20,000 nt of DNA from an uncultured virus (IMG/VR IMGVR_UViG_3300032181_000411) (IMGVR_UViG_3300032181_000411); one strand, 5' to 3'. Counted from the first letter of the stretch, positions 5,906 to 8,868 are shown. Program-made: numbers and translations. The notes: generated by a model from the letters alone, not told the origin.

Positions 5906-6187
5906 ATGAAGTCGTTTAAAGATCTGAGGCATGACCTCCAAGAAGCAGCCTGGACAAGGAAAGAAGGAAAGTCCAAGTCAGGCGGACTCAACGAAAAAGG
6001 ACGGAAGTCTTACGAGAGAGAAAATCCTGGATCAGACCTTAAGGCACCATCAAAGAAGGTTGGAAATCCCCGTAGGAAATCCTTCTGTGCTCGAATGAAA
6101 GGTATGAAAGCGAAGTTGACTTCCAAGAAGACAGCACGTGATCCAGACTCCCGTATTAACAAATCCTTACGTGCCTGGAATTGTTGA
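5906..6187 (+). CDS. Basic putative virion (internal head) protein, DUF6321-like
   Basis: AWTRKEGKSKSGGLNEKGR...RRKSFCARM...DPDSRINKSLRAWNC is a pattern I recall from T4-like cyanophages. The N-terminus MKSFKDL...LQE resembles a capsid-targeting leader. Confidence 0.75.
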   Translation: MKSFKDLRHDLQEAAWTRKEGKSKSGGLNEKGRKSYERENPGSDLKAPSKKVGNPRRKSFCARMKGMKAKLTSKKTARDPDSRINKSLRAWNC

Positions 6188-6222
6188 CCTGAATAGATAT
6201 AATTACATTATTAGAATGGCAT

Positions 6223-6378
6223 ATGGAAATGAGACTAAACTCCGACGACATTGCACGGTTGATTCGTGCCTGTGAAATGTACAAGGACTACACTGGATCA
6301 GAATATATGTGGGATGAATATGATCGTCTTGAAAAAAAATTGATGTATTACGAAGAAGAAAATTGCCCTGAGGACTAG
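6223..6378 (+). CDS. 51-aa hypothetical protein
   Basis: Hand translation: MEMRLNSDDIARLIRACEMYKDYTGSEYMWDEYDRLEKKLMYYEEENCPED (alternative start 6229). It is preceded by TAGATA/TATAAT and its stop abuts the next start. Confidence 0.75.
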   Translation: MEMRLNSDDIARLIRACEMYKDYTGSEYMWDEYDRLEKKLMYYEEENCPED

Positions 6379-6602
6379 GTGTATCGAGAACCTCACTTAA
6401 ATGAGAAGAATGCTGAATGTGCCAAACTGTGGCATGAATGGTATAGCTTGTTTCTAAAAAAGCATTAGGGGCACCAGACGTTAGACAGCAATGGTGCCAG
6501 TGCTGTGATGAACTCAGTGAGATGTTAAGTCAGGAAGTCAAGACAAACCCACGTTACAATAAGCTTCGGAGCAACTTGAATACGCCTGAACCTGATAGAT
6601 AA
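6379..6602 (+). CDS. Hypothetical protein split across two frames: 29 aa in frame 0 (6379-6468), 74 aa after a -1 shift at 6456-6462
   Basis: GTG start with GAGGA upstream gives MYREPHLNEKNAECAKLWHEWYSLFLKKH*. The -1 frame continues ALGAPDVRQQWCQCCDELSEMLSQEVKTNPRYNKLRSNLNTPEPDR* (TAA 6600-6602), filling the gap up to petE. Confidence 0.7.
6456..6506 (+). promoter_or_regulatory. Candidate -1 programmed ribosomal frameshift signal (slippery heptamer plus hairpin/pseudoknot)
   Basis: In-phase A_AAA_AAG at 6456-6462; 7-nt spacer; stem 1 GGCACCA (6470-6476)/TGGTGCC (6492-6498); stem 2 ACAGCA (6485-6490)/TGCTGT (6501-6506). Confidence 0.7.
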
Positions 6603-6622
6603 GGTAGTTGCTATAAAGTTAT

Positions 6623-6946
6623 ATGAAGTTTATTCTAGGACTTCTAGCCACAATGTTTCTTGCCCTCCCAGCGTGGGCAGTCGATGTCCAAATGGGATAC
6701 GACGGAAACCTCGTTTTCGAACCAGCCGAAGTTACCATTTCCGCTGGTGAGTCAGTTCATTTTGTTAATAATATGCTTCCTCCTCATAATGTAGTAGTGG
6801 AAGATCATCCAGAGATTTCACACGAAGGTCTCGCTATGATGCCTGGTGAAGAGTTCGATGTTGAATTTACCGAAGCAGGTGACTATACTTACTGGTGTGG
6901 TCCCCATAAGGGGGCTGGTATGATCGGTACAGTACACGTAGAATGA
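6623..6946 (+). CDS. petE: Plastocyanin (with signal peptide)
   Basis: Signal peptide ending AWA; LVFEP, NNMLPPHNVV and YTYWCGPHKGAGMIG supply the H, C, H, M type-1 copper ligands. Confidence 0.96.
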   Translation: MKFILGLLATMFLALPAWAVDVQMGYDGNLVFEPAEVTISAGESVHFVNNMLPPHNVVVEDHPEISHEGLAMMPGEEFDVEFTEAGDYTYWCGPHKGAGMIGTVHVE

Positions 6947-7446
6947 TGAAAAAATTTAATGAGGTTGTTTTAAATGTCACAGTAGCGATACTTGATTTTT
7001 TGTATCAAGGTCGTGACATACAACGTTTTTGGGTGCTTGAGACTATTGCTCGGGCACCCTATTTTGCTTTCTTGAGTGTCTTACATTTCAAGGAGTCTCT
7101 AGGTCTCAGGACCCCAGAACACTTTGACCTGATGGTAGAACACTTCGAGCAAACAGTTAATGAAACCGTACACTTAGAGGAGATGGAACGCCGTGGTGGA
7201 CATACTGCTTGGATTGATAGGTTCTTCGCTTATCATTTGGTGCTGGTCTACTATTGGATTATGGTCGCTTATTTTGCTGTGTTGCCTAGGTATGCTTATC
7301 ATCTGAACTCGGAAGTAGAACTTCACGCTTCTGTGACATACGCAAAGTATCTTGTTACAAATCCTGACGATCAGAAAATCATCGATATAATGAATGATGA
7401 ATTACACCACTACCAAGAGTTAGTCTTGGCTATGGAGAAAATCTGA
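6943..7446 (+). CDS. ptox: Plastoquinol terminal oxidase (PTOX, alternative oxidase family)
   Basis: RFWVLETIARAPYFAFLSVLH, NETVHL, EVELHA and DELHH give the E/ExxH di-iron ligands; adjacent to petE, as is usual in cyanophages. Confidence 0.93.
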   Translation: MMKKFNEVVLNVTVAILDFLYQGRDIQRFWVLETIARAPYFAFLSVLHFKESLGLRTPEHFDLMVEHFEQTVNETVHLEEMERRGGHTAWIDRFFAYHLVLVYYWIMVAYFAVLPRYAYHLNSEVELHASVTYAKYLVTNPDDQKIIDIMNDELHHYQELVLAMEKI

Positions 7447-7825: not shown

Positions 7826-8868
7826 AAGTAGGAATTATCGGATTGGGTCGTATGGGTGAGGGTATGTCCCGCCGTATGATCTCAGCAGGACACGAAGTAC
7901 ATGGTTATCGAAACAATGTTAAAAAAGCTGAAGAACAATATGAGAAGGGTTATATCAGTGGATATACCACTTCTGTGGAAAGCCTTGTTCAAGTAGTTCA
8001 CAACGGACGTGGAGTGTTTGGAGATGAGTCATTCAAACCTGGCGTCTTTATGATGGTTGTACCAGCAGAAACTGTAGAGGACACACTTAATGACTTACTA
8101 CGATATTGTCGTGAAGGCGACATTATTATTGATCATGGCAATTCCAATTTTAAAGACTCTAGACGCAGGGCAGAAAGGTTGTCTAAACTTGGCATCCAAT
8201 ATATTGACTGTGGTACTAGTGGTGGTGTTTATGGTTTGGACCGTGGATACTGTCTTATGGTTGGGGGCAGAGATACTGCAGTCGCCACTTGTGCGCCAAT
8301 TTTTAACGCCCTCTCCCCAGGTATCTCTGCCGCCGAACGTACACAACCTAATGATTTCGTAACACAAGCAGAAATGGGTTGGTTACATTGTGGTGGTCCA
8401 GGTGCTGGACACTTCGTTAAGATGGTCCACAATGGTATTGAATACGGTATTATGCAAGCATATGCCGAAGGTTTTAATATTCTACATGAAGCAAATGCTG
8501 GATCTAAGTATGTCAAAGAAGGAGACGCCGAGGTTGCCCCAATGGACTGCCCCGCCGATTATTGCTACGACATTAAAGTTGATGAGGTGGCTGAGCTTTG
8601 GCGTCGTGGTAGCGTGGTTGGTAGTTGGTTACTTGACCTTACCGCTGTTGTACTACGCCGCGATAGAGAGCTTAGCAAGTTCGATGGGGGAGTATCAGAC
8701 TCTGGTGAGGGGCGTTGGACTGTTCACGCTGCTGTGGATCTTGGCGTACCCGCTCCTGTCATCAGCAGTGCGTTGTGGGCACGTTTTGAGTCGCGCCGTC
8801 TTGGTGCTTTCACAGCCAAGGTTTTGAATGGAATGAGAGCTATGTTTGGTGGTCATGACGTTCGCTGA
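7822..8868 (+). CDS. gnd: 6-phosphogluconate dehydrogenase (short form)
   Basis: Rossmann motif GIIGLGRMG, IIDHGNS, DCGTSGG, catalytic motif GAGHFVKMVHNGIEYGIMQAYAEG, DSGEGRWT and C-terminal MRAMFGGH. Confidence 0.96.
   Translation: MKVGIIGLGRMGEGMSRRMISAGHEVHGYRNNVKKAEEQYEKGYISGYTTSVESLVQVVHNGRGVFGDESFKPGVFMMVVPAETVEDTLNDLLRYCREGDIIIDHGNSNFKDSRRRAERLSKLGIQYIDCGTSGGVYGLDRGYCLMVGGRDTAVATCAPIFNALSPGISAAERTQPNDFVTQAEMGWLHCGGPGAGHFVKMVHNGIEYGIMQAYAEGFNILHEANAGSKYVKEGDAEVAPMDCPADYCYDIKVDEVAELWRRGSVVGSWLLDLTAVVLRRDRELSKFDGGVSDSGEGRWTVHAAVDLGVPAPVISSALWARFESRRLGAFTAKVLNGMRAMFGGHDVR

Follow-up and report, generated by a model that had tools for sequence, protein, structure and literature searches.

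A 20,000-nucleotide stretch of DNA from an uncultured virus (IMGVR_UViG_3300032181_000411), referred to here as the window, contains a small gene that, judging from sequence comparison, probably encodes a single 74-aa protein of two helices, with a frame break in the inter-helix loop that is bridged by programmed -1 ribosomal frameshifting. The gene is split and the slippery heptamer A_AAA_AAG is kept in all split relatives examined; hence, the ribosome most likely must slip for the full protein to be produced.

A split gene with an in-phase slippery heptamer

The gene and its candidate shift signal consist of the following features, positions being those of the window:

6370..6374, + strand: GAGGA, a Shine-Dalgarno (SD)-like motif 4 nt 5' of the GTG start, read from the sequence
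6379..6468, + strand: 0-frame ORF (ORF list), ending ...TTT CTA AAA AAG CAT TAG, with a 29-aa product
6456..6462, + strand: A_AAA_AAG, a slippery heptamer with X_XXY_YYZ phasing and the candidate site of the -1 shift, invariant in relatives
6466..6468, + strand: 0-frame stop TAG, one codon 3' of the heptamer, seen in the sequence and in relatives
6462..6602, + strand: -1 frame segment of 46 codons (ALGAPDVRQQWCQC...NPRY...) plus TAA 6600-6602, identified by PHROG 8483 and by the frame of selection

The 5' end of the 0-frame ORF is the GTG at 6379, which adjoins TAG 6376-6378, the stop codon of the previous ORF. It comprises 28 sense codons including the heptamer, followed by CAT TAG, and codes for helix 1 of the family protein. 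The -1 frame segment, which codes for the end of the loop and helix 2, corresponds in alignment to the C-terminal portion of fused homologs. In the window, TAG at 6444-6446 closes the -1 frame, the first ATG, GTG or TTG thereafter is ATG 6522, and 46 open codons follow the heptamer before TAA 6600-6602 is reached, giving a predicted trans-frame product of 28 + 46 = 74 aa. A preliminary description of the window had reported this layout, namely the GTG-started 29-aa ORF with GAGGA upstream and a start abutting the previous stop, the heptamer at 6456-6462 in X_XXY_YYZ phase, and a -1 frame closed at 6444-6446, lacking a start until ATG 6522 and open to TAA 6600-6602, and all of it is borne out by the sequence.

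The heptamer itself is not unusual in the window, in which AAAAAAG is found 6 times vs 6.26 times expected from shuffles, that is, at chance level, so its significance rests only on comparison with relatives. The five further AAAAAAG occurrences on the + strand begin at 7921, 10301, 10323, 13305 and 18913, and the one at 7921 begins at the first codon position of a dehydrogenase ORF and is therefore out of shift phase. The 20 nt 5' of the heptamer in the window (GGTATAGCTTGTTTCT...) contain neither GGAGG nor AGGA, and thus no SD-like stimulator. The motif GGAGGGAG, present in some relatives about 17 nt upstream, stems from Trp-Arg-Glu-Trp codons and is not conserved (Arg 78%).

The preliminary description had raised the possibility of a homopolymer error (A6 versus A7). 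DNA contigs of two studies, one of which may be the sample of the window's own origin, match the window over 6154-6555 and 6154-6547 without a single difference or gap, and an RNA-library contig covers 6213-6560 with 4 substitutions and no gap. Insertions or deletions are listed in none of the four runs, contigs being blind to rare variants such as occasional A7 transcripts; coverage by RNA-library contigs is likewise no proof that the site is transcribed. As contigs from other runs share A6, with no indel in the independent DNA contigs, the site is not a sequencing error.

Conservation of the frame break among cyanophages

A DNA search placed the region in Synechococcus phages of several genera, and in the alignment S-CAM3, S-H9-2, S-H9-1, S-RSM4 and S-SM2 share AAAAAAGCATTAGG as well as both reading frames. 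When viral contigs were searched with the -1 frame protein, 173 relatives were recovered, the best 80 of which were combined with the five isolates into a set of 85 loci. The frame break is kept in 85/85 loci of this set (five isolates plus the best 80 of 173 relatives). In all 85, the N-terminal peptide (MYREPHL...) lies exactly 77 nt 5' of the C-terminal match and one frame ahead, one locus that is cut by a contig end showing this peptide only in part. Together with the window, the 85 loci collapse into 65 distinct sequences with a protein identity of 57-79%. The AAAAAAG is invariant in 65/65 distinct sequences, all of which were recovered through the downstream protein. The position of the start codon is conserved as well: of the 65 unique rows, 64 reach the start, which is ATG in 37 cases and GTG in 27.

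The 0-frame stop 3 nt past the heptamer is present in 59/65 distinct sequences and in 75/87 of a larger set. The forms without this immediate stop have TGG in place of TAG, which leaves Leu unchanged in the -1 frame, and their 0 frame extends by 18-60 nt. In 4/65 and 8/87 distinct forms, the window included, the -1 frame offers no ATG, GTG or TTG from its last stop up to the heptamer, and these start-less split forms nevertheless keep the conserved -1 frame sequence.

The same layout is also found in WH25-B, S-IOM18, S-CAM1, S-M1, S-BM3, S-CAM22 and Syn19. Among 128 loci of relatives, 110 are split, 2 are split and cut by a contig end, and 13 are fused; the remainder comprises 2 loci with a different N terminus and 1 weak match. 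None of the 128 loci is a broken form that lacks the heptamer; for loci added beyond the 65-sequence set the split class is defined by the heptamer, so only 65/65 is an unbiased heptamer count. A search of a phage collection with a fused query returned 52 records, of which 39 align in two pieces that lie in different frames and 13 in a single piece. The 39 two-piece records represent about 20 named isolates from at least nine genera, and no Prochlorococcus phage record in this collection matches the fused query.

A second in-phase A_AAA_AAG is present in S-CAM1 (L089, 1224-1230) at N-terminal Gln-Lys-Lys codons (CAA AAA AAG), and likewise in S-SCSM1 (L128), where it lies 23 nt past the start. 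Counted from the first heptamer of S-CAM1, 70 codons are open in the -1 frame, which continues into the downstream part.

The selected frame changes at the heptamer

Codon differences were analysed among 64 distinct sequences, the row cut by a contig end having been dropped. The synonymous share of codon differences in each frame is as follows:

72 nt 5' of the heptamer: 0 frame 62%; -1 frame 2.5%; +1 frame 15.6%
102 nt 3' of the heptamer: 0 frame 11%; -1 frame 46.5%; +1 frame 6.3%

Column entropy is highest at third codon positions, those of the 0 frame before the heptamer and those of the -1 frame after it. Purifying selection thus acts on the 0 frame up to the heptamer and on the -1 frame beyond, the switch falling exactly at this site. 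The downstream part is called as a gene of its own, of 46-61 aa, by annotators and gene callers; since the selected frame switches at the heptamer, the N-terminal extensions of the 57-61 aa downstream ORFs are non-coding in that frame.

Fused homologs and the predicted protein

Homologs in which both halves are contained in a single ORF of 66-97 aa are found in S-SCSM2R (74 aa), S-B05 (69 aa), S-SCSM1 (71 aa), S-8S55 (97 aa) and nine viral contigs (L113-L120 and L123). The distance between the N- and C-terminal motifs is 153 nt in the fused L115-L117 vs 152 nt in every split locus, so that re-reading one base restores exact collinearity. In a joint alignment, the two halves of the window tile the fused protein with neither gap nor overlap: FLKK+ALGAPDVRQQW is matched by YNAKDPLAKTTRKAW, 15 residues each, and the 0-frame ORF aligns to residues 1-29 of fused homologs. 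The proposal of the preliminary description that a programmed -1 frameshift joins 28 and 46 codons is strongly supported by the break, the heptamer, the spacing, the frame switch and the collinearity with fused forms.

A protein search with the fused form gave 259 clusters at E <= 0.001, and the 120 listed span 91-100% of the query. The protein alignment comprises 117 fused forms, the four longest listed hits (P0031, P0035, P0040 and P0045) having been excluded. Y2, E4, H6, L7, K10, C14, W18, W21, R36, W39, E53, N57 and Y60 are invariant in these 117 forms, and the linker between invariant residues varies across the fused proteins. AlphaFold2, run on the fused alignment with a fused homolog standing in for the trans-frame product of the window, predicts a helical hairpin with helices at residues 5-26 and 31-56 (mean pLDDT 89.1, pTM 0.69). 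Based on this model, the shift site (residues 27-29) is predicted to fall in the inter-helix loop, and the 0-frame product would be helix 1 alone.

The -1 frame part matches PHROG 8483, which has no assigned function, with an E value of 7.8e-29 over profile positions 7-57 of 58; this family covers the downstream half only and the upstream half is found in no PHROG. No Pfam family matches the protein, a fold search against the PDB returned nothing at E <= 0.001, and a protein atlas gave only hypothetical clusters with a score under 0.8; the names of protein clusters read only 'hypothetical protein'. The best PDB fold matches, CsoR/FrmR-like helical bundles, have E values of 1.3-2.3 and were discounted as evidence.

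On a FastTree tree of all alignment columns, the split/fused label changes 2 times. When the linker and C-tail columns are removed (45 columns left), 10 label changes are counted, of which well-supported branches force only 1. Two further contig loci (L121, 320-490; L122, 496-666) contain the C-terminal helix only (KCADELGEMVNEEVKTNPRYK), in frame with an unrelated N-terminal sequence, and may be a chimeric or rearranged variant of the family. The 90% cluster of P0015, the 57-aa downstream ORF of S-H9-1, includes a 306-aa MoaC/MoaB protein from a Bacteroidia MAG, an odd assignment.

An RNA stem-loop downstream of the proposed shift site

Four structural elements were considered 3' of the heptamer, all on the + strand:

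6470..6498: 3' stem-loop with arms GGCACCA 6470-6476 and TGGTGCC 6492-6498, from the fold of the window
6471-6475 with 6493-6497: conserved 5-bp core, 8 nt after the heptamer, from relatives
6461..6504: possible lower stem below the main stem, 6461-6466 with 6499-6504, from the fold of the window and the RNAalifold consensus
6485..6506: claimed pseudoknot pairing, 6485-6490 with 6501-6506, complementary in the window

The perfect 7-bp stem noted in the preliminary description begins 7 nt after the heptamer, and all 7 of its pairs are present in the minimum-energy fold of the window (-18.5 kcal/mol, z -2.46). The outer two pairs are frequently unpaired in relatives, and the 5-bp core is paired at 97.1% (63 distinct rows) vs 90.5% in shuffles and 27-45% with slid partners. 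For the 50 nt that follow the site, the folding energy is -14.4 +/- 3.3 kcal/mol among 87 split forms vs -8.3 +/- 4.3 kcal/mol for the equivalent stretch of 12 fused forms. In addition, the linker of split forms reads KKALGAP at 89-100%; being variable when the gene is fused and near-fixed when it is split, it shows a pattern that fits a constraint at the RNA level. Two observations weigh on the other side: third codon positions vary as much in the stem region as they do elsewhere, or more, and 4/5 core pairs involve first or second codon positions of Ala-Pro and Trp-Cys.

Covariation in the stem is confined to one pair, 6473-6495, which is GU in 26, AU in 18, CG in 10, UG in 4, UA in 1 and unpaired in 4 of the 63 rows; here, a synonymous change of an Ala codon accompanies a Cys-to-Gly or Cys-to-Ser change 22 nt away. 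On the tree, there are two changes of the 3' base and three of the 5' class, and a test of independent pairs comprises just 2 pairs. With so few events on the tree, the covariation is suggestive and not a statistical proof.

The preliminary description had also suggested an H-type pseudoknot. ACAGCA 6485-6490 is indeed complementary to TGCTGT 6501-6506 in the window, but the pairing is not conserved, with 57.1% of cells paired vs 54.5% in shuffles and 34-46% with slid partners (63 distinct rows), and this candidate was rejected. It also competes with the lower stem in the window. The lower stem was in turn rejected as a covarying element, as it is paired at 95.2% vs 94.9% in shuffles and is conserved without covariation. 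A search of 6000-7000 against Rfam returned 0 matches at E up to 1, and the 6470-6498 stem is not terminator-like.

Proposed mechanism and alternative explanations

Translation would begin at GTG 6379 and yield helix 1. At 6456-6462, both lysine tRNAs would re-pair one base back, while the stem-loop 7-8 nt downstream may sit at the mRNA entry channel and hinder translocation. Ribosomes that slip would decode ALGAP... in the -1 frame up to TAA 6602 and produce the full hairpin protein, and those that do not would read CAT and terminate at TAG 6466-6468, releasing a 29-aa helix-1 peptide; the two products may occur at a set ratio, as the preliminary description proposed. The sequences show the signal, its conservation, the change of the selected frame and the collinearity with unbroken homologs, and slippage on the ribosome, its efficiency and any role of the short product are inferred. 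In E. coli, A_AAA_AAG, which is the dnaX site, is far more shift-prone than related heptamers, and the passages of PMC5009743 drawn on here tie this to a single tRNA-Lys(UUU) and the absence of a CUU counterpart (PMC5009743). A single tRNA-Lys for AAA and AAG is reported there for about half of bacteria (PMC5009743). The 48 tRNA matches of one Synechococcus genome, a MAG whose organism may not be the host, include a single tRNA-Lys(UUU) and none with CUU.

It is conceivable, if rather doubtful, that the frameshift is a regulatory device in which slippage of the host tRNA-Lys(UUU) sets the ratio of helix-1 peptide to full hairpin. If so, the ratio would follow the translational state of the infected cell, that is, tRNA-Lys charging or modification and ribosome load, the isoforms would have distinct or opposing roles, and the fused lineages would have given up this control.

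Other explanations of the frame break have been weighed against programmed -1 ribosomal frameshifting. The gene could be split and involve no recoding: overlapping ORFs would yield helix 1 (29 aa) and, as a separate peptide, helix 2 (about 48-61 aa), the second ORF starting at a GTG or ATG a few codons before the A-run; the two peptides may then associate non-covalently. Annotators do give the downstream part as a gene of its own of 46-61 aa, a canonical -1 frame start (GTG, ATG or TTG) is available 6-39 nt from the heptamer in 79/87 distinct split forms, and retention of Lys-Lys in both overlapping frames would likewise fix AAAAAAG. These -1 frame starts are, however, by-products of 0-frame Trp codons (xTG TGG), no coding signal is seen in the -1 frame before the heptamer (2.5% synonymous), and 8/87 forms including the window have no such start and their -1 frame is still under selection. 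As independent peptides would also leave the fixed 152-nt spacing, the stem and the invariance of the linker in split forms only unexplained, we regard this arrangement as unlikely. Slippage of RNA polymerase is distinctly unlikely as well. The site is a homopolymer run in which one extra A would restore the frame in a fraction of the mRNAs, and contigs over the site cannot reveal minor RNA variants; yet the run is A6 in 63 and A7 in 24 of 87 distinct forms and never longer, whereas productive transcriptional slippage needs runs of about 9. Exact X_XXY_YYZ phasing, together with a stem 8 nt downstream, characterises slippage by the ribosome and not by the polymerase, and the RNA-library contig over the site has no indel.

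A pseudogene formed by a one-base deletion, or an assembly error due to a miscalled homopolymer, is barely credible. The window is a metagenome-derived viral contig, and unbroken homologs exist, as the preliminary description had foreseen for a recent pseudogenising deletion. The same break is nonetheless present in 39/52 phage records and 110/128 loci, both halves are under purifying selection, A6 is also found in independent DNA contigs, and no broken form lacking the heptamer occurs among 128 loci. The split form is old, diverse and under selection, and hence not a recent pseudogene.

Comparison with known frameshift systems

The gene has the features of a bacterial -1 cassette of the dnaX/IS3 type: an in-phase heptamer, a 3' structure 5-9 nt away and a conserved break. 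In 8/87 distinct forms, among them the window, the downstream part would be reachable only by a shift; the other 79 have a possible -1 frame start codon nearby, in a stretch with no coding signal in that frame. In E. coli dnaX (tau/gamma), slipping yields the shorter product and is aided by an SD-like stimulator upstream of the site. The cyanophage gene shares with dnaX the identical A_AAA_AAG and a simple 3' stem-loop a few nt downstream. It differs from dnaX in that slipping would give the long, full-length product, the 0-frame stop comes immediately after the site, and no SD-like element is present upstream in the window. A further likeness is the one tRNA-Lys(UUU) for AAA and AAG, as described for E. 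coli (PMC5009743) and found in one Synechococcus genome, and dnaX candidates whose layout is reversed in the way of the cyanophage gene are reported in other bacteria (PMC5009743).

Unlike the IS3/IS911 transposase, the cyanophage product is a 74-aa helical hairpin, the stimulator is a simple hairpin, and neither a transposase nor inverted repeats are involved. In orfA-orfB of IS911 and other members of the IS3 family, the site is of the A_AAA_AAG type, the long fusion needs the shift and the 0-frame ORF ends soon after, and the cyanophage gene resembles them in the type of site, in the shift-dependent long product and in the 0-frame end close to the site. The 3' structure of IS911 is described as a three-way junction (PMC5009743).

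As in the G/GT tail assembly chaperones, a conserved phage -1 frameshift would give a short and a long form with a common N terminus. The G/GT frameshift is located between the tail tube and tape-measure genes. The cyanophage gene instead has petE/PTOX or zwf...endonuclease-terminase as neighbours and shows no similarity to the chaperones. Its protein is also unrelated to that of csoS2, in which the shift gives a shorter form of a large protein. As described for csoS2 of the Halothiobacillus carboxysome, a -1 frameshift with a 3' stem-loop and, in the account given there, no 5' SD stimulator (PMC5009743), the shift is present in some lineages of one gene family and absent in others (PMC5009743). 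A frameshift mutation in chloroplast atpB is corrected translationally (PMC8254509), and ribosomes of cyanobacterial descent thus recode past a frameshift in that case too (PMC8254509). In contrast to this spontaneous mutant with its low-level rescue, as reported there, the cyanophage break is ancient and widespread and has a dedicated signal.

Gene neighbourhood

The flanking genes, all on the + strand, are the following:

6223..6378: upstream small gene of 51 aa, PHROG 5190 (E 1.7e-26), from the ORF list
6623..6946: petE (plastocyanin), 20 nt past the -1 frame stop, from the ORF list and the annotation of relatives; context, outside the element
6943-7446: PTOX, from the ORF list and the annotation of relatives

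The window also carries a 6-phosphogluconate-dehydrogenase-like ORF, is cyanomyovirus-like and has no tRNA genes. PHROG 5190 has no known function, and a similar gene lies directly upstream in 28/107 split-form loci. A link between the frameshift and petE-PTOX expression, as envisaged in the preliminary description, is not general, petE being directly downstream in only 37/105 split-form loci; the count for fused-form loci with enough flank is 7/13. A second neighbourhood, zwf ... endonuclease-terminase, is found in WH25-B, S-IOM18, S-CAM1, S-M1, S-BM3, S-CAM22 and Syn19.

Several observations concern petE and PTOX themselves. The petE TGA (6944-6946) overlaps the PTOX ATG at 6943 (ATGATGA, 6940-6946), which suggests translational coupling of the two genes. 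A terminator-like hairpin with 11 pairs, 7 of them G-C, followed by TATTTTGCTT, lies at 7031-7059 within the PTOX frame. Contigs from two RNA libraries join 6946 to 7027 or 7045, omitting 80-98 nt of the PTOX start; these joins have only 27 nt on the short side and may stem from other phage strains. In NC_070962.1 (S-SCSM1, L128), the plastocyanin gene at 826-1149 is named 'tail tip protein Tal' and carries a note giving petE, which looks like an annotation slip. A 193,981-base contig of a Synechococcus MAG (G001:C1) contains a petE 83% identical to that of the window (L131, 82358-83078) and tRNA genes for Leu-UAG, Arg-UCU, Thr-UGU and Leu-UAA, and looks like a cyanophage genome binned with its host.

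Implications

In the part of the cyanophage literature that was searched, no description of this frameshift was found. The signal itself is textbook; apparently new are the gene and host group in which it occurs and the fact that fused and split forms exist side by side. The few cases known in tailed phages would gain a deeply conserved -1 frameshift that lies outside tail-chaperone genes. The finding also corrects the annotation of 39/52 records, in which the gene is unannotated or given as a truncated downstream ORF with a spurious N terminus. The carriers are abundant marine cyanomyoviruses with cultured isolates (S-RSM4, Syn19, S-SM2, S-CAM1 and others), and the fused and split versions of this tiny gene are natural paired controls with which efficiency, selective value and evolutionary direction could be tested. 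More broadly, the finding suggests that A_AAA_AAG is a working shift site on cyanobacterial ribosomes.
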